A stretch of 64,000 nucleotides of DNA from Bacteroidota bacterium (GCA_023392945.1 JAEWNB010000136.1:3050-67049), one strand, 5' to 3'; positions 6,954 to 64,000 are shown, counted from the first letter of the stretch. Notes: a model not told the origin generated them from the letters alone. Numbers and translations: made by a program.

Positions 6954-7424
6954 ATGAGAGTAGGCTTAGGTTACGATTCTCATAGACTGGAAAATGACCG
7001 TAAACTTATCTTGGGGGGAGTCCATGTTCCTTTCCCTAAAGGGGCTGTTGCTCATTCTGACGGAGATGTTGTAATCCATGCCCTTTGTGATGCTCTCTTC
7101 GGAGCTGCCGGCATGAAAGATATCGGAACCCACTTTCCTGATACCAATCCCGAATTCAAAAATATTGACAGTAAAATTTTGCTTGCCAAAACCATCGAAA
7201 TTTTATCTGACAAGGATTTCTGTGTGAACAATGTTGACATAACTATTGTTTTGGAAACTCCTAAACTGTCGCCATATATTGATAAAATGATTGAAACGCT
7301 CTCCTCTATCATGAAAATTGACTGCTCCAGATTGTCGATTAAAGCCAAAAGCAACGAAAAAATGGGCTTTATCGGAGCAGGTGAAGGAGTAGTTGCCTTT
7401 GCAATCGTTTCCCTCAATGAATGA
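6954..7424 (+). CDS. ispF: 2-C-methyl-D-erythritol 2,4-cyclodiphosphate synthase
   Basis: 156 aa. MRVGLGYDSHRL...HSDGDVVIHALCDALFGA... carries the canonical IspF metal-binding motifs. Confidence 0.95.
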   Translation: MRVGLGYDSHRLENDRKLILGGVHVPFPKGAVAHSDGDVVIHALCDALFGAAGMKDIGTHFPDTNPEFKNIDSKILLAKTIEILSDKDFCVNNVDITIVLETPKLSPYIDKMIETLSSIMKIDCSRLSIKAKSNEKMGFIGAGEGVVAFAIVSLNE

Positions 7425-7476
7425 CAACATTTTGAATTTCTCTTTTCATTCATTATAAAAATAAAAAACAATAAAT

Positions 7477-9579
7477 ATGAAAAAAACACTACTATTAATT
7501 GGAATCTTTACCGTTATGACAATGTTACTTAATGCTCAGAATGACAATGAAATGCCAAAGGACAATCCTTTGCTGCTGGAATGGGGAACTCCCTACCAGA
7601 CTCCCCCTTTTGATAAAATAAAACCGGAGCATTATATTCCGGCATACGAATATGCCATTAAAGCCGCAAAAGAAGAGATATACAGGATTACCCATGTCAA
7701 GATGAAGGCTTCCTTCAATAACACCATTGCAGCACTTGACAGATCCGGGAGTTTATTGAACCGCATCAACGGTGTATTTTTCAATATGCTTTACTGCAAC
7801 TCCACTCCTGAACTACAGGAAATAGCACAAAAAATTAGTCCGATGCTAACGGAATACAGCAATGATATTACGTTAGATCCCATTCTCTTTAACCGCATTA
7901 AAGATGTTTATGCCAATCCCGGAAAACTCAATCCTGAGCAACAAATGCTTCTTGAAAACACCTACCGTGCTTTTTTAAACAGTGGAGCAACTTTATCAGA
8001 GGAAAACAAGAAAATTTTCAGAGAGTTAACCATGGAGCTCTCACAGCTTTCATTATCCTATAACCAGAATGTACTTAACGCCACTAATTCATGGTACAAA
8101 AATGTCACCTCTAAAAAAGATCTCAAAGGAATACCGGCAGCAGATTTAGCCATTGCCAAAGAAAAAGCAAAAGAAAAAAAATTAAAAGGCTGGGTATTTG
8201 ACCTATCCTACCCCAGTTTTTTAGCCGTGATGAAATATGCCGATAATAGAGAATTGAGGAAAGAGATGTATATTCATAATGGTAGCAGGGCTTTTGAAGG
8301 GGAGTATGACAATAGCAAAAACATCAAAGAAATTTTAATGAAACGTGATAAAATTGCCAAGCTGTTGGGTTATCAAAACTATGCTGAGTATGCACTTCAA
8401 GATAGAATGGCAGAAAATCCAAAAAAAGTTTACACCCTTTTAGATCAACTGCTTCAATATTCAATGCCTGTTGCAAAAAAAGAAATAGAGTCGCTGAATC
8501 AATTTGCATCAGAATCAGGTTTTAAGGGAAGTATAGAAAGGTGGGACTTTACCTATTATTCAGAGAAACAAAAAAGCAAGCTTTTCAATCTCAACGATGA
8601 AATGTTGAAACCCTATTTTAAACTTGAAAATGTTATTGACGGAGTTTTTGCACTGGCAACCGATCTTTACGATCTTAAATTTATACCTACCAATAAAATC
8701 CCCAAATATCATCCTGATGTAAAAGTATATGAAGTATATAGAGATCAGCAAATTCAAGCAATATTATATTTGGATTTTCACCCAAGAGCTTCCAAAAAAG
8801 ACGGTGCCTGGATGACCAATTTCAGAGAACAATATATAAACGATTATGGAGAAAAGATTATCCCGTTGGTTTCCCTTGTTATGAATTTCACGCCTTCCAC
8901 TCCAAAAGAACCTTCATTGCTGACCTTTTACGAAGTTACTACATTTTTACATGAATTTGGGCACGCCTTACATGGGATGGCATCAAATGTCACCTATCAG
9001 AGCCTTTCAGGAACCAATGTAAAAAGAGATTTTGTTGAACTTCCTTCTCAAATAAATGAAAACTGGGCGAGTGAATTTGAATTTCTCAAGAAATTTGCTT
9101 TTCATTATAAAACAGGAGAAGTTATTCCTATGGAATTAATTTCAAAACTAAGGGAATTTGACAACTTCCAGGCAGGCTATACTTCATGCCGACAACTCTC
9201 TTTTGGCTATCTGGATATGATGTGGCACACCATCAACCCTGATGAAATTGAAAATGTACTGGAAATTGAAAGGAAAGAACTTGATAAGACGGAATTGATG
9301 CCGGTTGTTCCCAATACTTGTATGAGTACTTCTTTCTCCCATATTTTCTCCGGTGGTTATTCGGCAGGTTATTATAGTTACAAATGGGCAGAAGTGCTGG
9401 ATGCTGATGCTTTTGGGCTTTTCCGCGAAAAAGGAGTTATGAACAAAGAGGTGGCCCGTTCTTTTTATGATAATATTCTTTCAAAAGGAGGCTCCGAAAA
9501 GCCGATGGACCTCTATATAAAATTCAGAGGCAGAGAACCTGAAATTAAGGCTTTGCTCGAAAGAAGCGGACTTAAATAA
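7477..9579 (+). CDS. dcp: M3 family peptidyl-dipeptidase (Dcp-like)
   Basis: 700 aa with a signal peptide and the HEFGH zinc motif (FLHEFGHALHG). Length and C-terminal conservation are typical of M3 oligopeptidases. Confidence 0.85.
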   Translation: MKKTLLLIGIFTVMTMLLNAQNDNEMPKDNPLLLEWGTPYQTPPFDKIKPEHYIPAYEYAIKAAKEEIYRITHVKMKASFNNTIAALDRSGSLLNRINGVFFNMLYCNSTPELQEIAQKISPMLTEYSNDITLDPILFNRIKDVYANPGKLNPEQQMLLENTYRAFLNSGATLSEENKKIFRELTMELSQLSLSYNQNVLNATNSWYKNVTSKKDLKGIPAADLAIAKEKAKEKKLKGWVFDLSYPSFLAVMKYADNRELRKEMYIHNGSRAFEGEYDNSKNIKEILMKRDKIAKLLGYQNYAEYALQDRMAENPKKVYTLLDQLLQYSMPVAKKEIESLNQFASESGFKGSIERWDFTYYSEKQKSKLFNLNDEMLKPYFKLENVIDGVFALATDLYDLKFIPTNKIPKYHPDVKVYEVYRDQQIQAILYLDFHPRASKKDGAWMTNFREQYINDYGEKIIPLVSLVMNFTPSTPKEPSLLTFYEVTTFLHEFGHALHGMASNVTYQSLSGTNVKRDFVELPSQINENWASEFEFLKKFAFHYKTGEVIPMELISKLREFDNFQAGYTSCRQLSFGYLDMMWHTINPDEIENVLEIERKELDKTELMPVVPNTCMSTSFSHIFSGGYSAGYYSYKWAEVLDADAFGLFREKGVMNKEVARSFYDNILSKGGSEKPMDLYIKFRGREPEIKALLERSGLK

Positions 9580-52194: not shown

Positions 52195-52577
52195 TGTCTA
52201 ATGGTTTGATTAATTTTATATTCCTAAAAATAATATTCTACTTTCTATTAATAAAAATATTATTTTAATAATTTCATCTCAGCATGAACTTTATTAAAAA
52301 ACAATTAAGTTATTAAACAAAAGCCCCTCTTAATGAGAAATATTAGTTTAAATTTGAGGAAACAAATATATATATAAATAATATAAATTGCATTTTATTT
52401 TTTATTTAGAAAAAAAATTTTTCAGAGCCCGCTACCACACTTTGCTCAACTCGGAGAAATATAAAATCGATTTTTTGTTCAAATACCCCACTATAACCAA
52501 ATAAAGAAACTGCTATTGATGAATTGTCGTTAAAAAACATTTGACAGCGATTAGTAATAACAATAAAAAAATCATTG

Positions 52578-52585
52578 TATATTTG
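52578..52585 (+). promoter_or_regulatory. -7 promoter box (TATATTTG) upstream of hicB, inside direct-repeat copy 1
   Basis: TAAAAAAATCATTGTATATTTGC (52564-52586). The box ends 21 nt before the ATG at 52607. Confidence 0.5.
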
Positions 52586-52606
52586 CGACGAATAAAGATA
52601 AAAATC

Positions 52607-52825
52607 ATGGAATATACCATATTAATTAAAAAGTCTGATGATGGCTTTTATGTAGGACAATGTGAACAAGTTCCAGAGGCAATTTCACAGGGAAAGACAA
52701 TAGATAAATTAAAAGAAAATATGAAAGATGCCATTTCTTTAATCTTACATATAAAGAAAGGAACAATGGAAAAAGCCTATTTTTCTTTAACTGATGTAAG
52801 CGAATCAACTGCTTCATCAATTTAA
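52607..52825 (+). CDS. hicB: HicB-family antitoxin-like protein (orphan; no hicA seen)
   Basis: The track ORF begins at a TTG; I prefer MEYTILIKKSDDGFYVGQCEQVPEAISQGKTIDKLKENMKDAISL... (72 aa). This resembles the HicB N-terminal RNase-H-like fold. Confidence 0.6.
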   Translation: MEYTILIKKSDDGFYVGQCEQVPEAISQGKTIDKLKENMKDAISLILHIKKGTMEKAYFSLTDVSESTASSI

Positions 52826-56966: not shown

Positions 56967-57982
56967 CGGATCGTTATTTTAGTCCCTTCACTTACTTTCT
57001 GATAACCCTCCACAATCACTTTATCGCCAAGGTCAATTCCCCCTGCAATCACAATTCCCTCCTCCGACAATCCGTCGGTTTGTACGATCCGTTTGGATGC
57101 CTTCTCCCCTATGGCTACCCAAACATAATGTTCTCCCTCCGAAGAGAGCATCACTGCCCTATTGGGAAGAATAATGCTCTTGCTTGTATCTCCCGACAAA
57201 AGAGCTACCTTGCACACCATCCCCGGAATGAGCTTTCTTTGGGGATTCATAACGGGAATTTCAATATCGTATGAGTGGGAAATCGGATTGGCAACCACTC
57301 CTATTTTATCCACTTTTGCCTTAAAGGTGGCGTTGTTGAGAGCAGGAATTACCATGTTGGCCGCCTGTCCCCGTTTAATCGAAGAAATGAGATTCTCGGG
57401 AATAGCCACCTTCACCTTAACCTTATCCATATTGAGCAGACTAAAAACCTGAACGCCCGGCAATACATTGACTCCGGGCTCCACAAAGCGCTTGCCGATG
57501 ATACCGGAAAAAGGAGCGGTCAATTTTGCTGCCTCCAGATTCTTACGGGCTATCTTTTCCGCCGACTGTGCCTTTTCCAAATTGGTTTGCATCTCAACCC
57601 ACTGAATTTCAGGCAGACTTCCTTTTTCATAAAGCTGCTTCATTCTCCCGTAAGCATCCTCCGCCTGACGGAGCAAAGCCGCTGCAGCATCATGAGTACT
57701 CTCCAGATTGCTGCTGTTCACCTCAGCCAGCAACGCTCCCTTTTGGACAAAATCACCCTCCCCGACATATATCCGCTCCACATTTCCCGGAACCGAAAAG
57801 CTCAGAGAAGAGGCATAATCCTCCTTCACCGTACCCACAAAATGTTGTGCTTCCACCTCCGAAGAAGCAGCCGCCACCAACACCTTAACAGGAATGGCCT
57901 CCGAGGCTCGCTCCCCTGAATGATGACCACACCCGCATAAGAGAAAAATAGGAATTATAATCCAATACCTTTTTTTTACCAT
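56963..57982 (-). CDS. efflux RND transporter periplasmic adaptor (membrane fusion) lipoprotein
   Basis: 339 aa with a lipobox (LLCGCG). Coiled-coil hairpin and barrel regions typical of the HlyD_D23 family. Confidence 0.85.
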   Translation of the reverse strand: MVKKRYWIIIPIFLLCGCGHHSGERASEAIPVKVLVAAASSEVEAQHFVGTVKEDYASSLSFSVPGNVERIYVGEGDFVQKGALLAEVNSSNLESTHDAAAALLRQAEDAYGRMKQLYEKGSLPEIQWVEMQTNLEKAQSAEKIARKNLEAAKLTAPFSGIIGKRFVEPGVNVLPGVQVFSLLNMDKVKVKVAIPENLISSIKRGQAANMVIPALNNATFKAKVDKIGVVANPISHSYDIEIPVMNPQRKLIPGMVCKVALLSGDTSKSIILPNRAVMLSSEGEHYVWVAIGEKASKRIVQTDGLSEEGIVIAGGIDLGDKVIVEGYQKVSEGTKITIR

Positions 57983-58017
57983 AAATTTTATTCTTTATAA
58001 GCTGTTTTTAACTAACG

Positions 58018-58025
58018 CAAAAATA
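58018..58025 (-). promoter_or_regulatory. -7 promoter box (TATTTTTG on the minus strand) for the RND operon
   Basis: Plus-strand caaaaata, 35 nt upstream of the adaptor ATG at 57982. Confidence 0.45.
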
Positions 58026-58081
58026 TTACAATTATTGAAATAAACATCTCTTAAAAAAACTCCGATATTATTTAATATTGG

Positions 58082-58376
58082 ATTTCATTCCACCACTTTT
58101 TTTGCCCATTTTTTCACGATTTCAATTTCGTAGTTACGAAAAAAAATTTAGAAGCTTCGTTTTACAAATTTAGAAGCTTCGTTTTTAAATTTAGAAGCTT
58201 CGTTTTTAAATTTAGAAGCTTCGTTTTTAAATTTCATGAATACGTTGTTAATTTCATGCTCATGAAAAAAAATTTCTTGCCCATGTTTTACAAATTTCAT
58301 GCGCACAAAAAATAATTTCTTGCTCATGTTTTGTAAATTTCATGCGCACAAAAAATAATTTCATGCGCATGAAATT
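58082..58376. repeat. array of about 14 phased 20-22 bp units (ATTT - variable dyad core - A/T tract), ending in a perfect 20-bp palindrome
   Basis: Unit starts (ATTT) are at 58146, 58168, 58189, 58210, 58231, 58251, 58272, 58294, 58315, 58337 and 58358, plus degenerate units upstream. There are three identical units ATTTAGAAGCTTCGTTTTTAA plus one variant (58146). Two 43-bp super-repeats occupy 58272-58314 and 58315-58357. The terminal AATTTCATGCGCATGAAATT (58357-58376) is perfectly palindromic. Confidence 0.85.
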
Positions 58377-58458
58377 GTTCACCGGCAAATACCCATTCAA
58401 AACCCCTCTCTTTTAATCTTAAAAAGGATCAAATCGGAGTGCATTTTTTTAACCGGCC

Positions 58459-58556
58459 ACTTTTAGAAAATATAAGTACATAAATATTTTTCATCGAAAA
58501 GAATAATTATTAATTTTGTGAGCTTTTAAAGCATTATATAAAAAAAAGTAAATAAT
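58459..58556 (+). repeat. direct repeat copy A (conserved leader core)
   Basis: 58511-58556 (TAATTTTGTGAGCTTTTAAAGCATTATATAAAAAAAAGTAAATAAT) matches 60025-60070 with 1 mismatch. Flanking similarity is weaker. Confidence 0.8.
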
Positions 58557-58704
58557 GAACTATCCCCACTAATGTGGGATGGTAGTGCAATAAAAAGGGA
58601 AAAGGATTAGGGGGGAATAAGTAAGTTGAGAGTCATACACGATGCAATCTCACAAAAGAGTTTCAGAATATAATAATAATCAATTTTATATAAGAGAAAA
58701 TATT

Positions 58705-59097
58705 ATGGATAACCTTACTATTAAAGAAAAAATAATTGCTCTGGAGACAGCAGCTCTAGAAGCTTGGCACAATGGGAATCCTTCACCCTATCTGGAACTT
58801 TATTCGAAGGACTTTACCTATTTCGATCCTGTACATGAAAGGCGGCTTGACGGTTGGGACAAGATAAAAGATTTGTATGAAAGCATGCGAGGAACGGTTA
58901 AAATGGATAAATTCGAAATGATAAATCCCGTTGTACAACAAACCAATACAATGGCAGTCCTAGCCTACAATCTGCACTCATACTTAGGGGAAACGCTTTG
59001 GAAGGAAAATTGCACCGAAGTGTATAGGCTTGAAGAAAATAACGAATGGAAAATCATTCACAGCCATTGGTCATTGACTAACCCTTCAATTAATTAA
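58705..59097 (+). CDS. DUF4440/SnoaL-like (NTF2 fold) protein
   Basis: I prefer the start MDNLTIKEKIIALETAALEAWHNGN... The C-terminal WKIIHSHWS is typical of DUF4440 proteins. The track ORF adds 21 upstream codons from 58642. Confidence 0.6.
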   Translation: MDNLTIKEKIIALETAALEAWHNGNPSPYLELYSKDFTYFDPVHERRLDGWDKIKDLYESMRGTVKMDKFEMINPVVQQTNTMAVLAYNLHSYLGETLWKENCTEVYRLEENNEWKIIHSHWSLTNPSIN

Positions 59098-59127
59098 TTA
59101 CACTGTCACTTTTTTAAAAAAATACCT

Positions 59128-59688
59128 ATGGATAAGATATTAACATTCCCTGACAGACAAGCCTTTCGAGAATGGCTTGACAAGTATGGGGAAGAGAGCG
59201 ATGGCATATGGTTACTCTTTGGAAAAAAAGAGAAAACTGTCACCCTATCTGCAGGCGAAGCATTGGAAGAAGCTCTTTGTCACGGATGGATAGACGGACA
59301 AATACAATCTCTTGATGATAATAGTTATAAAAAGTATTTTGCGCGACGCTTACCTAAAAGCAAATGGTCTGTTAAAAATAAAGAGCTGGCACAAACACTT
59401 ATGGAAAAGGGATTAATGACCCGACAGGGTATAGATGCAATAGAAAACGCTAGAAAAAAAGGTTTATGGGATAATGTTAAACCTATCCTTATTAAGGATG
59501 AACATATTCAGATGTTTAAGGAAATAATTCAGCCGTATGAGCCTGCTTATACTAACTTGCTGGCCATGTCGCACTCGGTACAGCACACCTATACCGGTTT
59601 TTATCTTGATGCCAAATCTGACAAAACCCGTCAAACTCGGTTAGAAAAGATTATAGACAGACTTAACAAGAATTTGAAACCAATGTGA
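59128..59688 (+). CDS. YdeI/OmpD-associated (DUF1801-related) family protein
   Basis: 186 aa. FREWLDKYGEESDGIWLLFGKK...ALCHGWIDGQ...YFARRLPKSKWS resembles the YdeI family. Confidence 0.6.
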   Translation: MDKILTFPDRQAFREWLDKYGEESDGIWLLFGKKEKTVTLSAGEALEEALCHGWIDGQIQSLDDNSYKKYFARRLPKSKWSVKNKELAQTLMEKGLMTRQGIDAIENARKKGLWDNVKPILIKDEHIQMFKEIIQPYEPAYTNLLAMSHSVQHTYTGFYLDAKSDKTRQTRLEKIIDRLNKNLKPM

Positions 59689-59743
59689 TGTAAGTAAATT
59701 ATATGACAATATTAAAAAGAAAAGAGTAATAAAATAAACGAAC

Positions 59744-59873
59744 TCTCAACATGCATTATATAAGCCATGGCGTGGTATTAAGCGTATTTAACATCTCGTC
59801 TCACAGCAATTTCGGCACGTGAAATACAGGCATCTGTAAAATCCGCCACTACTCTTAGCAGCCGCCGTTACCT
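59744..59873 (+). other. attC-like imperfect palindrome 1 (weakest of the three)
   Basis: Left core TCTCAAC (59744-59750) and right core GTTACCT (59867-59873), 130 bp apart. The arms pair only partially (TAAG and TGGCG blocks). An alternative right core is CTTAGCA at 59854-59860. Confidence 0.35.
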
Positions 59874-59964
59874 GAGATAGTCAATTAAACAAAAGTCTGA
59901 CTCCAACTCTTTTCCATCAGCCTTTTAAATGCCCTTGCAAGGCGTTATCTTTGATTAAGGAGTT

Positions 59965-60070
59965 ACTTTTGAAAATAAAGTACCAAAAAAGAAAAAAATA
60001 TTTTTTATAGAAAAGAAAAAATCCTAATTTTGTGAGCTTTTAAAACATTATATAAAAAAAAGTAAATAAT
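59965..60070 (+). repeat. direct repeat copy B (conserved leader core)
   Basis: See copy A. 60025-60070 matches 58511-58556 at 45 of 46 positions. Confidence 0.8.
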
Positions 60071-60191
60071 AACCTCATAGCCTTCAGAAGTGCATAGTAG
60101 TCATATACTAATATGGATTAAAATAGTTTTACTAGGAATAGGGTGAATATATAAACGAGTTAGGTCCAATGCAAAAAAAACACCAACTACA

Positions 60192-60809
60192 ATGAAAAAT
60201 GAGCATAATGAAAATATAATTCGATTTCTAAAGGACAATATAGAACCATTGGATGATAGTATTTATGGATTAAGCTACAGAGCATCTGCATACTTGACTG
60301 ATGGAGTCTATTTGCCTTGTGTGATTTTTAGAAATCCAAAGTCAACAGTTAATCTTGCACTACGTAGATTCAAAGAAGAACAAAAAGGTAAAGGGATTTT
60401 TGGCAAGTCCGCTGCAAGTTACTTTAAGATTGTTGAGCATTTTGTGACAAATGGCAATCGGATTAATGATTACGACATTGAAAAAGTTGAAAAGAGTAAA
60501 TATGCCTTCCCGATTTCTACTTTAAAACAAATTCGCGGCGAGACAACTATGGGTTGGACTGGATTTACAGCAAAAATGAAAGATGGAAAATGTTTTGGAT
60601 TTGGCACCCGCTTTCTAAATGAATTCTTCCAAATGCCAGATAACTATTCGACTGATGATATAATTGAGATTGTAAATCATAGCTATGTTTCAAAAAACGG
60701 AGAAATACATTCACATAAAGTTCCCTTTTCAAATTGGTCAGATGATTATGAAAAGGATTTGATTTATAGAGAACGACCTTATTTTATTTGCTATATTGAC
60801 AATTTATAA
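60192..60809 (+). CDS. hypothetical protein
   Basis: 205 aa, no recognisable family and no signal peptide. Coding-like composition. Confidence 0.5.
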   Translation: MKNEHNENIIRFLKDNIEPLDDSIYGLSYRASAYLTDGVYLPCVIFRNPKSTVNLALRRFKEEQKGKGIFGKSAASYFKIVEHFVTNGNRINDYDIEKVEKSKYAFPISTLKQIRGETTMGWTGFTAKMKDGKCFGFGTRFLNEFFQMPDNYSTDDIIEIVNHSYVSKNGEIHSHKVPFSNWSDDYEKDLIYRERPYFICYIDNL

Positions 60810-60831
60810 TACAATGATAAAAATGCACAGG

Positions 60832-60962
60832 CCCTAACAAAATGTATACATCATGCGGGTTTCAGAGCAATTTGCAAGTTCAGAGCTCGCTGGCAATGGC
60901 AGTAACGATGGATAGGAAAGTGACCACGAACTCCCGCACGCTGCATACACTAAACGTTAGCA
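60832..60962 (+). other. attC-like imperfect palindrome 2 (best supported)
   Basis: CTAAC (60834-60838) pairs 5 of 5 with GTTAG (60956-60960). Inner arms TGTATACATCATGCGGG (60843-60859) and CCCGCACGCTGCATACA (60933-60949) are complementary at 14 of 17 positions. Short unpaired spacers lie between core and arm. Total length is 131 bp. Confidence 0.55.
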
Positions 60963-60986
60963 CATTTAAACAGAATCAAAAACAAC

Positions 60987-61484
60987 ATGAAAATATTTTT
61001 TTATGCTTTAACTATTTTTACTTTCCTCTCTACCACCACAGCTCAAACAACAAATCGTAATGATCTCTGTAAGAAAGAGTCGAATGAATTATGGAGAGAA
61101 TTGGCAGACAACGGAAAATATCAGGAAGCAATAAAGATTTTACTTGACACTATTCAGACAAGTAAGCAAAAGAATAAAAATGTCACTTATTGGCACATTG
61201 GTCAACTATATGCATTTAATAATGAATACACTTCAGCCATTGAATATATGAAAAAATCAACAAGTTTTCTCGATAAAGTTTTCGACAGAGAATGGCGATT
61301 ATATTACAACGGAACCATTGCATTTCTTAAAAAAGACAAGAAAAAACTAAAGAATTATAATGACAAGTTGTGGAAAAAGCATTCGGACTACTATTATTTC
61401 AATGCTTGCAAATTGAAAGCATTGTACGAAAATTTTGACAAGCCCTATAAATTAGCTTATGATGTGTCTTGTAAATCATATTAA
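60987..61484 (+). CDS. hypothetical exported protein (TPR-like helical)
   Basis: 165 aa with a signal peptide (MKIFFYALTIFTFLSTTTAQ). No family recognised. Confidence 0.5.
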   Translation: MKIFFYALTIFTFLSTTTAQTTNRNDLCKKESNELWRELADNGKYQEAIKILLDTIQTSKQKNKNVTYWHIGQLYAFNNEYTSAIEYMKKSTSFLDKVFDREWRLYYNGTIAFLKKDKKKLKNYNDKLWKKHSDYYYFNACKLKALYENFDKPYKLAYDVSCKSY

Positions 61485-61526
61485 TGTATATAACTTTGTT
61501 CGGCAACTATTTAAAAGAGTAGTAAA

Positions 61527-62795
61527 ATGATTAACAGAATAATTTTAATTTTCTTTTTGATTTTAACATCAACTACTTTTGGGCAGACAATCCGCAAGCT
61601 TGAATACGATTTGTCTTGGTATGAATTTCCTGAAAAGTATGGTGACAAAATTGAAAAAGCCAAGAAATTACAAGAAATTGACCCTTTTAACTACATAGCA
61701 ACAAAATACATCTGCAATTATTACCATGATAGAAACATTGATTCTGTTTCTATCTACTTTGATAATTTAATTTCCAAATTCCCCAAAAATACTGAACCCT
61801 ATCTTTTAAGGTCAGAATTATTATTTCTTGAAGTTGATTATAATAATAAAGAAGAATACAATAGGCTTAAAATAAAATATTTAAAAAAGGGACTCGATAT
61901 TAATCCTAAAGACCCTTTAATAATCTTTATGTTGGCAGAAACATATTATAAGGATTTTATTTACCCATTGGAGAAAGAAAAAAATTGGGGATTTAGTACT
62001 AAATTTGAAGATGATAGGGTTGATTCTGCTTTAGTCAGTCCAGAAAAACCTATTAAAAAATCAACATTTGAAACTTCAGCAGATAGTTCATTAAAATATT
62101 TTTATCAATTATGGGAATTAAGAAAGGACAAAAGAGAGATTATTTACTATCCTATCAGACAACTTGAATGTTTTTTACAACAAATCGAGAAAACCCCAAT
62201 TCCAAAAGACACTGAAAGGAACTTCAATCAATGCTATTTCCCATTATCCTATTTCGCCAATCTATCAGATAATTGGGAATGTGACTTTACAACTGACTAC
62301 TTATCAGAAATTGAATTTGTGAAATCAACTGCTGAATGGCTTGAAATTCAACTTAGTGACATAAAAGAAGATTGTCTTTACAATTATGAAACTAAGCCTA
62401 ATACAACTATTTATCGATTTACTTGGCTAAGAAGTTTTGATAACCCGATTGCTATTAGAATTGAGAAATTTGAAAATAAAATAATGTTGTATTGGAAAGT
62501 TGGCAAAGGGGATGGTGGATATGAACCAAAAGGGTTAAAGAAATCAGGCAGGAAAAAACTTAATTCAAATGAATGGATAGAATTTGAAAAACTTGTTAAG
62601 GAGTCAAATTTCGATAGTTTGCCAAATAATATTTATATGCCACTTGTAGACGGATCAACTTGGACTTTAGAAAGGAAAACATCTGAATCATTTAAAGCTC
62701 ATAATACGGATTGGCCTAGCAAGGAAATTAAAAAAGCTTGTTTATACTTACTTGACCTGACAAAAATAAAAGTGAAAGATGAGGACAAATATTAA
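61527..62795 (+). CDS. hypothetical exported protein
   Basis: 422 aa with a signal peptide (ILIFFLILTSTTFGQ). The N-terminal half is helical-repeat-like. No family recognised. Confidence 0.5.
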   Translation: MINRIILIFFLILTSTTFGQTIRKLEYDLSWYEFPEKYGDKIEKAKKLQEIDPFNYIATKYICNYYHDRNIDSVSIYFDNLISKFPKNTEPYLLRSELLFLEVDYNNKEEYNRLKIKYLKKGLDINPKDPLIIFMLAETYYKDFIYPLEKEKNWGFSTKFEDDRVDSALVSPEKPIKKSTFETSADSSLKYFYQLWELRKDKREIIYYPIRQLECFLQQIEKTPIPKDTERNFNQCYFPLSYFANLSDNWECDFTTDYLSEIEFVKSTAEWLEIQLSDIKEDCLYNYETKPNTTIYRFTWLRSFDNPIAIRIEKFENKIMLYWKVGKGDGGYEPKGLKKSGRKKLNSNEWIEFEKLVKESNFDSLPNNIYMPLVDGSTWTLERKTSESFKAHNTDWPSKEIKKACLYLLDLTKIKVKDEDKY

Positions 62796-62805
62796 AAAAA
62801 ATAGT

Positions 62806-62937
62806 GTCTAACCCGCTGTATAATAAATTGCCGAGTTAATAGGTTTTTTAAGGGTAATATCCTACTTCAACTTTTCATGTACTTTGACAGGTCAGTGCTT
62901 TGAAATAGGAAAGAAATAATACTACAGAAAGTCAGCA
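62806..62937 (+). other. attC-like imperfect palindrome 3
   Basis: Left core GTCTAAC (62806-62812) is a perfect RYYYAAC. Right core GTCAGCA (62931-62937). The arms TGTATAATAAATT and AAATAATACTACA are partly complementary. Length is 132 bp. It shares CTAAC-N4-TGTATA with site 2. Confidence 0.4.
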
Positions 62938-63009
62938 GAAAAACTTATCCTAATAAATAAAGTAAATGTAACACCGCAAAGGAAAATAAAAATGGACAAG
63001 AAAAAATAA

Positions 63010-63693
63010 ATGAAAACAATTTTAAAAATCGCAGGTCTCATTGCACTAATGGTGCTGACGAGTACGACTTTCAGTCAGACAAATGAGATACAAATCAAGT
63101 TTATTGGAAATTGTGGGCTGTGGATGAGTGACGGAAGTCACAATATTTACTTGGATTTTCCATACAAATCAGGGGTTTACCGTTGCATGGAGTACGATTT
63201 ATCCGAAATAGACAGTATAAAGAGCAATCCTATTTTTATTTATACACACCTCCATGCTGATCATTATTCAGGAAGATTGGTCAAGGAACTTGCAAAAAAA
63301 CTCAATGGAAGAATTTATACTCCTCTTCATCTCCACAAACTATCAACACTCAATCATGAATTGAAAGATTTCTCCATTGAAGCTTTTAAAACAAAGCATA
63401 AGTATTCTATTAATCACTACTCCTATCTGATTACATGGCACAATAAAAGAATTCTAATTTCAGGAGATACAGAAAAATCAGATACAATTTGCAGTTTGAA
63501 GGACCTTGATTGTGCCTTTATTCCGTTTTGGATTTTGCTGGATGCAAATGATAAAGGAATTAAGCTTTTAAATCTCGGTAAAATGTTTCCCATTTATCAT
63601 ATTAGCCCCAGGTATCACATAACCAAAGATCCAAATGACACTAAAATATTGTTGCTAGATAAACCGGGAAAGATTATAACCATCCCCTATTAA
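63010..63693 (+). CDS. MBL-fold metallo-hydrolase (exported)
   Basis: 227 aa with a signal peptide. HLHADHYSG (HxHxDH) motif. Confidence 0.7.
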   Translation: MKTILKIAGLIALMVLTSTTFSQTNEIQIKFIGNCGLWMSDGSHNIYLDFPYKSGVYRCMEYDLSEIDSIKSNPIFIYTHLHADHYSGRLVKELAKKLNGRIYTPLHLHKLSTLNHELKDFSIEAFKTKHKYSINHYSYLITWHNKRILISGDTEKSDTICSLKDLDCAFIPFWILLDANDKGIKLLNLGKMFPIYHISPRYHITKDPNDTKILLLDKPGKIITIPY

Positions 63694-63791
63694 GAAAAAA
63701 ATGAAACATTAAATAGCATCTTTCTCTCTCACTAAACAAGTCGAACCATTGTACCCAAAATAAATAAATCAAACCATAAATTGATAAAATC

Positions 63792-64000
63792 ATGTCCACA
63801 TTAGAAAGGGCCATAGAAATAGCGATATCCGCACATAAAGGGAAAAAAGATAAAGCAGGGGCCGGCTATATTTTACATCCTCTTCGTGTCATGGCGCGCG
63901 GAAAGAACGATATGGAGAAAATTTGCGGCGTATTACATGATGTTGTGGAAGATAGCGAATGGACTTTTGAGATGCTTCAAAATGAAGGATTTTCCGAAGA
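63792..64000 (+). CDS. HD-domain protein, RelA/SpoT-type hydrolase-like (partial; runs off the window)
   Basis: My translation is MSTLERAIEIAISAHKGKKDKAGAGYILHPLRVMARG...GVLHDVVEDSEW..., which carries the H...HD..ED signature. Confidence 0.6.
   Translation, partial: MSTLERAIEIAISAHKGKKDKAGAGYILHPLRVMARGKNDMEKICGVLHDVVEDSEWTFEMLQNEGFSE

Follow-up and report, generated by a model that had tools for sequence, protein, structure and literature searches.

What kind of element is formed by the run of small genes at positions 58377-63693 of this Bacteroidota chromosome? An earlier note had read the region as an array of attC-bearing gene cassettes without a neighbouring integrase, and this reading is supported by a covariance model, by boundary polymorphism and by the specificity of the sites. 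Positions refer to the window, the whole 64-kb stretch of DNA that was analysed (Table 1). From 58.6 kb to the window end every real-looking ORF of at least 50 aa is on the + strand, which upholds, for such ORFs, what had been claimed of all ORFs from 58.7 kb on. The upstream neighbours, an RND pump and its membrane-fusion protein (Pfam lists), are on the - strand. The GC content of the array region is 0.29-0.37, compared with 0.44-0.48 in the adjoining RND genes.

Pfam identified the ORF1 product as a DUF4440/SnoaL, NTF2-like protein and the ORF2 product as YdeI-like, with a weak OmdA match and DUF8412 in the precomputed Pfam list. ORF3 encodes a conserved Bacteroidota protein without a Pfam family match. 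The products of ORF4, ORF5 and ORF6 are exported; the first has a weak TPR match, the second no Pfam family match and the third a weak MBL-fold match. ORF7 encodes a small SpoT/RelA-type HD hydrolase (family match). The products listed previously (DUF4440-like, YdeI-like, hypotheticals, exported MBL-fold) match the Pfam results.

Table 1. Features of the cassette locus, in window coordinates
Feature	Coordinates	Strand	Description
Region under study	58377-63693	+	Codirectional small genes
Unit a (putative promoter and attI-like site)	58482-58627	+	D3 58482-58561; TAATTTTG box 58511-58518; ~65-nt leader ending ...AATAAGTAAGTT; junction GTT 58625-58627
Cassette A	58626-59867	+	1242 bp; ORF1 58705-59097, ORF2 59128-59688; ends with attC site 1
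attC site 1	59742-59873	+	Inner core AAC ends at 59750; outer core GTT 59867-59869
Spacer X	59868-59995	+	Between site 1 and unit b
Unit b (putative promoter and attI-like site)	59996-60161	+	D3 59996-60075 with TAATTTTG box 60025-60032; leader ending ...GAATATATAAACGAGTT; junction GTT 60159-60161
Cassette B	60160-60956	+	797 bp; ORF3 60192-60809 and attC site 2
attC site 2	60830-60962	+	Intact; R'' GGCCCTAAC, AAC ends at 60838; 4-nt spacer; L'' 60846-60862; L' 60924-60940; 6-nt spacer; R' GTT 60956-60958
Cassette C	60957-62931	+	1975 bp; ORF4 60987-61484, ORF5 61527-62795, attC site 3
attC site 3	62804-62937	+	Inner core GTCTAAC ends at 62812; outer core GTC 62931-62933
ORF6-ORF7	63010-64000	+	ORF6 63010-63693; ORF7 63792-64223, past the window end

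The attC sites were searched with a covariance model, R1, for which two unrelated metagenomic arrays (L034 and L031) supplied eight attC sites. The family alignment has a 19-bp L stem, in which 12 pairs show compensatory changes; extrahelical bases are not evident in this stem, which has only a 1x1 mismatch, an occasional extra T and internal mismatches. In the whole window R1 gave significant matches at sites 2 and 3 only, both on the bottom strand just past stop codons. Site 2 scored 111.5 bits (E 4e-26, 60827-60963) and site 3 33.8 bits (E 1.5e-6, 62801-62940; aligned over its full length, with many pairs broken); past 62940 the window has no significant match. Site 1 also aligned over its full length (59739-59876) and stayed below significance as the fourth match in 6.1 kb (8.0 bits, E 0.43). 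Thus two of the three proposed sites passed this check with our own model from other arrays, and the earlier positions of all three agree with the alignments. An Rfam scan of the region found no family at gathering score, and its weak matches include no attC family.

The cores given in the earlier note, TCTCAAC/GTTACCT, CCCTAAC/GTTAGCA and GTCTAAC/GTCAGCA for sites 1, 2 and 3, are correct. Inverse cores (R'' ..YAAC, R' GTT) bracket sites 1 and 2, and at each of the three sites the inner core starts 10-56 nt past a stop codon. The motif CTAAC-N4-TGTATA, described as common to sites 2 and 3, has exactly these two occurrences in 64 kb, where by our estimate ~0.06 exact matches are expected by chance. 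R1 also matches other cassette arrays: L034 (9 or more sites), L036 (3), L037 and L028.

The claim of three palindromes stood for site 2, which is convincing; as found in the array, the bottom strands of sites 1 and 3 show no folding advantage over shuffles (z +0.8 to +2.0). In its array context the bottom strand of site 2 reaches -18.5 kcal/mol (z -1.4), and when circularised with its own cassette start -25.9 kcal/mol (z -3.9). The predicted structure has the R box, the unpaired spacers (on the bottom strand 6 nt on the 5' and 4 nt on the 3' side) and the 17-bp L stem that had been described. Folding favours the bottom strand over the top, since two of the top strand's three mismatches, both A-C, turn into G-T pairs there; one G-A mismatch stays. 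Site 2 is 85% identical to an attC in L034 and, judged from its sequence, still looks recombination-competent. Circularised site 3 also folds no better than shuffles. It was accepted as an attC because of its sequence homology to the family, and is a decayed one, with most of its stem broken, GTC instead of GTT as outer core, and the shared motif kept.

In integrons the crossover takes place between G and TT of R', and the start of a cassette complements the R'' of its own attC. This circular-permutation signature is present in the locus. Cassette B begins with GTTAGGTCC. Against the reverse complement of the site 2 R'' this start agrees at 8/9 positions, and the other junctions at 6 or fewer; in the homologues of the ORF3 cassette in L031 and L034 the complementarity is 9/9, and every cassette of L034 shows the signature. 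The inner core of site 1, ACTCTCAAC (59742-59750), is the exact reverse complement of G58625 plus TTGAGAGT at the start of cassette A (9/9, versus 4/9 with every other junction), and the 9-mer GTTGAGAGT occurs in the 64 kb only at these two places. When circularised, the bottom strand of site 1 forms a 9-bp R box (-17.9 kcal/mol, z -1.6). Because of this core complementarity we accept site 1 as an attC, a divergent one with a weak L stem and of another type than sites 2 and 3. It is kept in L025, and the ORF1-ORF2 pair also forms one unit in another genome (L040/L041, 86% nucleotide identity). The two model-significant sites and the one backed by core complementarity lie on one strand within 3.2 kb.

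These properties bear on whether the palindromes could be generic REP, terminator or invertible-promoter elements that take no part in cassette recombination. Site 2 is a long inverted repeat directly past a stop codon, many metagenome assemblies and contigs break inside it, as at an inverton, and R1 has a weak + strand match there as well, which arises because the site is palindromic. Against this, R1 has no match elsewhere across the 64 kb of core chromosome, the attC family was found only in arrays, where it follows codirectional small genes at their 3' ends, the boundaries and the R-box complementarity obey integron rules, and no contig in inverted orientation was seen. Such a reading is extremely improbable and can be regarded as largely refuted in favour of attC sites.

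No element of the locus is more strongly repeated than the D3 repeat with its leader, which is absent from the earlier note. The two 80-nt direct copies of D3 (58482-58561 and 59996-60075) are 89% identical, with 0 expected by chance. D3 belongs to a ~150-bp unit that opens each transcription unit, with a TAnnTTTG box of the Bacteroidetes type inside and ...AAGTT or ...ACGAGTT at its end; matches to an HMM of the unit are limited to lineages of this locus. In L029 a unit with the same ...ATAAGTAAGTT end is followed by different DNA. The 3' end of the unit b type (...TATATAAACGAGTT or ...ATATAAACGTT) is also found on one unit in L026 and on two in the unrelated contig L041, again with different DNA after each. 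Counting window a, window b, L026, L029 b and two cases in L041, the DNA after the unit-terminal GTT takes six different forms, so the unit behaves like an attI site; its leaders do not fold, by which it resembles attI rather than attC. Sequence likeness of the unit to known attI sites was not found. We therefore describe it as a putative attI-like insertion site that carries the junction GTT. It is also a putative promoter, as the TAnnTTTG motif suggests, a single 8-nt motif with a poor -33 element. An attI-like site repeated within one array lies outside the classical integron model.

Related contigs show the polymorphism at G/TT cassette boundaries that the earlier note had proposed to look for, namely L026, L031, L034 and L029. 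In L026, which has no ORF1-3, a unit is joined directly to the sequence found in the window from 60956 on (99.5% identity). Positions 60162-60955 are missing, the two alignments overlap in the GTT itself, and the homology at the junction is just 3-5 nt. This contig sets the left boundary of cassette C, the sequence upstream being different; the right boundary is placed provisionally, from site 3 only. In L031, L032 and L034 the ORF3 cassette stands in three other surroundings, and homology begins at G60159.

The right end of the locus has another character. ORF6 and ORF7 are probably co-transcribed resident genes without attC and not cassettes; in L011, ORF7 is followed by a strong hairpin with a T-run. 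In L025/L029 the right boundary of a replacement lies within ORF7 and not at an attC, which indicates that other, non-site-specific rearrangements also shape the locus; L029 retains only the last 13 codons of ORF7 and the hairpin. The replacing sequence carries the toxin-antitoxin module ParDE. Spacer X, kept in both contigs, was found in a terminator scan to contain an intrinsic-terminator-like hairpin (59928-59946) followed by a T-rich tail.

The array might instead be a fossil, old and immobile, its strain differences resulting from homologous recombination between D3 copies and from ordinary deletions. The degraded state of sites 1 and 3 would suit such an origin, as would a gene order that is the same in all metagenome contigs with identical proteins, the replacement that ends within ORF7, and the combination of a D3a-like left part with a unit-b-like leader in L026, which fits a D3a x D3b crossover. 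However, in L026 the ORF3 cassette is gone exactly from GTT to GTT next to an almost unchanged cassette C, as site-specific excision or insertion gives, and the few nucleotides shared at that junction speak against homologous exchange. Moreover, site 2 is intact, and the assemblies that break inside it fit co-existing variants. We consider a fossil unlikely, and prefer cassettes exchanged by site-specific recombination.

Which recombinase could have moved the cassettes? Pfam detected no tyrosine recombinase or Phage_integrase among the 27 window ORFs scanned, in line with the earlier remark that upstream an RND operon is found and no such gene. Neither the 58 kb upstream nor the ~1.6 kb downstream that L011 supplies contained an integrase, and none was seen within 10 kb of the related arrays L034, L036, L037 and L041. 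The sole trace of a recombinase is a C-terminal remnant of the Xer/IntI type in L031, which lies shortly before the first cassette and has two direct repeats behind it. XerC/XerD models give it a slightly higher score than the integron integrase model does, but in so short a fragment Xer and IntI are indistinguishable.

This score could be taken to mean that a non-IntI tyrosine recombinase, a Bacteroidota Xer-like enzyme of the rAID-1 kind, moves the cassettes of a merely integron-like system. The great rarity of complete integrons in sequenced Bacteroidetes (PMC9024848) and the GC content below that of the RND neighbours point the same way. The rAID-1 orphan immunity arrays of Bacteroidales (Ross et al. 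2019, 10.1101/471110) are also Bacteroidota loci of codirectional low-GC small genes with repeated intergenic sequences. They are defined, however, by an XerD-like recombinase 5' of the array, which is absent here; of the defining rAID-1 features the locus has only the codirectional low-GC genes. In the cargo, neither matches to immunity or defence families nor recognisable immunity genes were seen. Unlike rAID-1 repeats, those of this locus are true attC hairpins, showing the full attC layout and G|TT boundaries, and in L034 one attC is interrupted by a group II intron. We judge such an enzyme decidedly improbable and retain the integron-type reading.

The evidence supports an integron-type gene-cassette array without an integrase nearby. 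In the terms introduced in 2016 (PMC4889954) it is in all likelihood a small CALIN of three cassettes: A with ORF1-2, B with ORF3 and C with ORF4-5. As in CALINs, a small array of uncharacterised cassettes has at least two clustered attC sites on one strand within 4 kb and lacks a nearby intI; a complete integron, with an adjacent intI, was not found among the 27 window ORFs scanned. It differs in that the array opens at a conserved promoter-like insertion unit, present twice in the locus, and in that the host is an environmental Bacteroidota lineage.

IntI can also insert cassettes at genomic GWT sites, where they are expressed if near host promoters (Loot et al., 10.1101/2022.09.11.507474). 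With such attG insertions, SALINs and small CALINs (10.1101/2022.09.11.507474) the locus shares a core-chromosome GTT (GWT) downstream of a possible host promoter and the lack of a linked integrase. But attG sites are many and nearly sequence-independent, whereas here a conserved ...ATATAAACGAGTT or ...TAAGTAAGTT is reused in different genomes, and this repeated use of the same site suggests that a specific attI-like site, and not a GWT hit at random, was the target.

Sedentary chromosomal integrons (Vibrio superintegron, VCR) resemble the array in their ~130-nt attC sites of one sequence family and mostly uncharacterised cargo, and the likeness extends to the ParDE module of L025/L029 and the group II intron in the L034 attC. 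In contrast to them, this locus has three cassettes only, no adjacent intI or classical attI, and attC sites that are not homogeneous, site 1 being of another type and site 3 decayed.

In the mechanism that we propose, cassettes A, B and C would have been inserted by an IntI-type tyrosine recombinase acting on the single-stranded folded attC, with the crossover between G and TT and the terminal GTT of the ~150-bp unit as the target. Because it holds both the target GTT and a promoter box, the unit may serve as attI and Pc at once. The presence of two units suggests two transcription units: the first would run from unit a through cassette A to a terminator, the second from unit b through cassettes B and C and the resident ORF6-ORF7 to a terminator. 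The integrase, presumably IntI-like and possibly still active, would act in trans, encoded elsewhere in the genome or on a transient element, or would have been lost. Given their weakened sites (1 and 3), cassettes A and C are probably on the way to fixation. The array belongs to a known class of elements, few of which have been described in its phylum.

All plausible genes from 58.6 kb to the end of the window lie on the plus strand, as the earlier note had claimed, and family scans agree with the product types it named: a DUF4440-like protein, a YdeI-like protein, ORFs without a family and an exported protein with a weak MBL match. On the 5′ side the array is bordered by minus-strand genes for an RND pump and a membrane-fusion protein (Pfam lists). 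The remaining window is core chromosome, with genes for ribosomal proteins, SecY, RpoA and type IX secretion. GC content is 0.29-0.37 in the array region versus 0.44-0.48 in the RND genes. Metagenome contigs extend past the window and show a strong hairpin plus T-run behind ORF7 and, after it, a convergent type IX secretion substrate gene; gene order was constant in the many metagenome contigs obtained by exact-protein look-ups of ORF2, ORF3, ORF4 and ORF6. Elsewhere in the window, at 52541-52825, a small ORF resembling HicB-type antitoxins (MEYTILIKKSDDGFYVGQCEQVPEAISQGKTIDKLKENMKDAISLIL...) occupies an AT-rich gap (GC 0.25), whose neighbours are the gene for a type IX secretion cargo protein of 1707 aa and a patatin-like gene.

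Features of the cassette locus, with matches of the attC covariance model R1 (window coordinates)
Feature	Position	Strand	Description
Unit a	58482-58627		
Cassette A	58626-59867		ORF1-2 + site 1
ORF1	58705-59097	+	NTF2-like, DUF4440/SnoaL
ORF2	59128-59688	+	YdeI-like (DUF8412)
Site 1	59739-59876	-	R1 8.0 bits, E 0.43, filters off, 6.1-kb search
Spacer X	between cassette A and unit b		terminator-like hairpin 59928-59946 (terminator scan)
Unit b	59996-60161		
Cassette B	60160-60956		ORF3 + site 2
ORF3	60192-60809	+	205 aa, no family
Site 2	60827-60963	-	R1 111.5 bits, E 4e-26, intact
Site 2 palindrome echo	60830-60966	+	R1 16.8 bits, E 0.027
Cassette C	60957-62931		ORF4-5 + site 3
ORF4	60987-61484	+	exported, weak TPR match
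ORF5	61527-62795	+	exported, no family
Site 3	62801-62940	-	R1 33.8 bits, E 1.5e-6, full length, many broken pairs
ORF6	63010-63693	+	exported, weak MBL match
ORF7	63792-64223 (stop beyond window end)	+	small SpoT/RelA-type HD hydrolase

The earlier note had described three imperfect palindromes of attC type. When the sites were folded as found in the array, this was true of site 2, which forms a long hairpin (bottom strand, -18.5 kcal/mol, z -1.4); in its centroid fold CTAAC pairs with GTTAG and the 17-nt arms are also paired. Sites 1 and 3 folded no better than shuffles. The three sites showed no useful similarity when aligned to one another, and an Rfam scan of the region returned only chance matches below threshold, none of them to an attC family. 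A covariance model (R1) was built from eight attC sites of two independent arrays, L034 and L031, aligned on the bottom strand with the AAC/GTT pairs added. RNAalifold predicted for the aligned sites a 19-bp stem, in which 12 pairs have compensatory changes. Search of the whole window with R1 upheld the attC reading: only site 2 (on both strands) and site 3 matched. A fourth match, to site 1, appeared with filters off on 57900-64000; it extends end-to-end on the expected anchors and is alone not significant. R1 also matches sites in L036, L037 and L028.

The cassette boundaries, with crossover at G|TT, carry the signature of circular permutation. Cassette A starts with G58625 plus TTGAGAGT, exactly the reverse complement of ACTCTCAAC at 59742-59750 in site 1, and this 9-mer has these two occurrences and no others in the 64 kb. 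Cassette B begins with GTTAGGTCC, which agrees at eight of nine positions with the complement of GGCCCTAAC from site 2. In the cross-control all other junctions scored 4/9 against site 1 and at most 6/9 against site 2. With its own cassette start restored, the bottom strand of site 2 folds at -25.9 kcal/mol (z -3.9) and site 1 at -17.9 kcal/mol (z -1.6); site 3 is unimproved. Site 3, which ends in GTC, has to be given a one-base bulge before it agrees with the beginning of cassette C. The predicted junction of the circular ORF3 cassette is ...CACTAAACG|TTAGGTCC....

Two other ways of delimiting the mobile segments were rejected. A transposon with terminal inverted repeats (GTTGAGAGT...ACTCTCAAC) does not agree with the comparative boundaries, which take in the whole attC past the inner core (the AAC side, R″). 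Spacer X together with unit b (59868-60159) is not a cassette: it has no fold and no R″ complementary to GTTACCTGAG.

The relationship between site and cassette start is also seen in L034, a 10.6-kb contig with 11 codirectional genes, among them an ORF3 homologue 90% identical to ORF3. Sites of the site 2 family, ~135 nt long, are present in most of its intergenic regions, one of them 85% identical to site 2. Each attC has an R″ equal to the reverse complement of G followed by the opening bases of the cassette to which it belongs (R″/cassette-start pairs ACGCCCAAC/GTTGGGCGT, GGCCCTAAC/GTTAGGGCC and GCCGGTAAC/GTTACCGGC). A true group II intron interrupts one attC site of this contig. L034, L031 and L032 are homologous to the window from exactly G60159 onward. 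In L031 the ORF3 cassette comes first and starts at the bar in ...ACGGTT|GTTAGGGCC. Before it stand two direct repeats TGTGCAATACGCATAT and, before these, at 7250-7450, a ~70-aa C-terminal remnant of an Xer/IntI-type tyrosine recombinase (...HTLCHGLARYLLEQGNDLGTIQSLLGYNSLRTTELYTHI...), oriented like the cassettes and located directly 3′ of an alcohol dehydrogenase gene; XerC/D and IntI are indistinguishable here, and a search for homologues of the remnant gave nothing. The remnant and the direct repeats look like a degraded integrase and its attI. L031 (~8735-8810) and another related locus, L041 (8615-8690), share the sequence TCGAGTAGA...GCCTCTCACACC..., which starts exactly at the expected attC inner core AAC (...ACGAACGCACAA|TCGAGTAGA) and may be the end of an attC-targeting element, e.g. 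an IS1111-attC-like IS or an intron remnant.

The earlier note, which had recorded the palindromes, missed a much stronger direct repeat, D3. Its two 80-nt copies (58482-58561 and 59996-60075) are 89% identical, and each lies 5′ of one ORF group. D3 includes TAATTTTG (to 58518 and 60032 in the two copies), which we take to fit TAnnTTTG, the consensus of Bacteroidetes -7 promoter elements, with a poor -33 element; transcription would be expected to start about 7 nt 3′ of it. Each copy and the ~65-90-nt leader behind it make up a unit ending in the junction GTT (...AATAAGTAAGTT in unit a, ...GAATATATAAACGAGTT in unit b); unit b includes ...ATATAAACGAGTT.... No fold was found for either leader on either strand, thus the leaders are not attC sites. 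The D3 core had a single match in the genome collection, in a close relative, so D3 is no genome-wide repeat family; the JGI metagenome scan yielded four contigs. An HMM of the unit, run against all fetched loci, recognized only the window lineage, L041 and, partly, L028.

The stretch 58120-58380, which separates unit a from the divergent RND operon, is densely filled by an array of ~12 short palindromes (TTTCATGCGCATGAAA, AGAAGCTTCG etc.) spaced by 21-22 nt (TRF period 21 or 43). The close relative L025 retains this array with a different number of units, and L037 has a comparable 21-22-nt tandem array (GATGCAAATGCGT...) at 8355-8700, 5′ of a gene that belongs to a cassette-like array. These repeats could be operators or recombinase-binding sites.

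Searching by pattern with the D3 core brought up five informative loci, L025-L029. L025 (Bacteroidetes MAG WAS_Bin_9, JAGVVH01) and L029, the matching JGI contig, represent one close relative, which has in common with the window the stretch from the RND genes through ORF1, ORF2 and site 1 to the second D3. Behind the second unit a ParD/ParE toxin-antitoxin pair replaces ORF3-ORF7 (L025 7360-8000; L029 980-1760). Its left junction is the unit-terminal GTT, its right junction falls within the last 13 codons of ORF7, and no attC follows the pair in either locus. L026, a short JGI contig, consists of D3, a leader 85% identical to the pre-ORF3 leader and ending in ...AAATGAGTT, and then the window sequence from 60956 onward (99.5% identity); L026 therefore lacks ORF1-ORF3. 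Its two alignments overlap by exactly GTT (60159-60161 and 60956-60958), a boundary polymorphism at the G/TT position that the earlier note had named as a check. In a more distant relative (L027/L028) the left half of D3 is retained, and behind it come a single 302-aa gene and a site that reads CTAAT-N4-TGTATA.

Within site 2 (60842-60929), at least eight independent contigs from metagenomes (Logan assemblies) begin or stop, with breaks at 60842/60843/60844, 60856, 60863, 60872/60873 and 60929. The breaks point to an assembly-graph branch, which fits co-existing cassette variants in those samples. They also raised the idea that site 2 is an inverton; no inverted copy was seen.

Another genome (L040/L041) carries the ORF1-ORF2 pair (86% nucleotide identity) behind a uroporphyrinogen decarboxylase gene. 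L041 also has two units homologous to D3 plus leader, which end in ...GCGTATATAAACGAGTT and ...AATATAAACGTT and are each followed by unrelated DNA. Six different sequences thus stand after the unit-terminal GTT (both window units, L026, L029 b and two in L041), which argues that the unit would behave as a preferred double-stranded insertion site and likely promoter, a putative functional equivalent of attI plus Pc. The unit does not resemble known attI sites and is present more than once in a locus. Over its final ~30 nt it is similar to the attC family's 3′ half (...GCATATACTAAACGTT); speculatively, it may be derived from a truncated attC.

Behind ORF6 and ORF7 no attC was found, the sole trace being a 2.8-bit R1 match near 63669-63717, around ...CACTAAACAAGTC.... 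Because of this, and because a stump of ORF7 is kept in L029, we take ORF6-7 to be resident genes, into whose leader the cassettes were probably inserted. The spacer between ORF6 and ORF7 (63700-63790) holds ...CTCTCACTAAACAAGTCGAAC..., similar to the 3′ end of the attC family (...CACTAAACGTT...) and scoring only 2.8 bits with R1; this stretch may be the relic of a lost attC.

No tyrosine recombinase was detected among the 27 window ORFs scanned, as the first reading had it, and no integrase lies within 8-10 kb of the ORF3 and ORF2 homologues in L034-L037, L039, L041 and L042. The locus, an attC cluster with no integron integrase nearby, fits the definition of a CALIN (PMC4889954); it is not a complete integron because there is no adjacent intI. 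The definition of recombinase-associated immunity arrays (rAID-1; 10.1101/471110) includes a 5′ XerD-like recombinase and excludes the window array, since none lies 5′ of it. IntI has been shown experimentally to insert cassettes at genomic GWT sites near host promoters, which yields SALINs and small CALINs (10.1101/2022.09.11.507474); cassette insertion in the window matches this route but differs in that a conserved site is reused.

For ORF3, more than 400 homologue clusters (62-93% identity) are spread over many Bacteroidota genera, with source names including Myroides, Empedobacter, Pedobacter, Chitinophaga, Parabacteroides and Mucilaginibacter. ORF3 itself was unmatched in Pfam, NCBIfam and PADLOC, and the AlphaFold model of the family (pLDDT 58) was too poor for a fold search. 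Members of the family are found both within cassette arrays (L034, L036, L037) and singly among core genes (L035, L039), in L039 with a decayed attC, as judged by eye. PADLOC and NCBIfam searches for a function of the cargo returned nothing. ORF2 has more than 1400 homologues. Identity is 80-88% throughout the best 120, whose sources are various Bacteroidales (among them Microbacter margulisiae and an isolate of Tenuifilaceae) and one MAG that carries the label Cloacimonadota. Conservation to that degree across taxa suggests frequent horizontal transfer of the ORF2 family.

Integrons are best known from Proteobacteria, and to our knowledge lone integrases of the In0 type were for years the sole integron trace reported in Bacteroidetes. 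In complete RefSeq genomes, Bacteroidetes have only lone integrases and one complete integron (PMC9024848). The window locus and the related contigs demonstrate that one ~130-nt attC family circulates with its cassettes among environmental Bacteroidota, in every case seen here as integrase-less arrays inside the core chromosome. Two features are less ordinary: the conserved, repeated unit, attI-like and with a likely promoter, which is reused as entry point, and the recurrence of arrays lacking an integrase in all related contexts seen. Together they leave room for a dispersed organization, a tentative reading that we consider rather improbable: environmental Bacteroidota might run an integron with a lone integrase elsewhere and cassettes sent to several short, conserved units (promoter plus attI-like site), scattered in the core chromosome or repeated within one locus. 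If so, the ~150-bp unit (D3 plus the leader ending in ...ACGAGTT) would be a new portable expression and insertion platform, distinct from both classical attI and random attG sites. Confirmation that the unit is reused as entry point would reveal how integrase-less arrays are expressed and a possible origin of attI-like sites.
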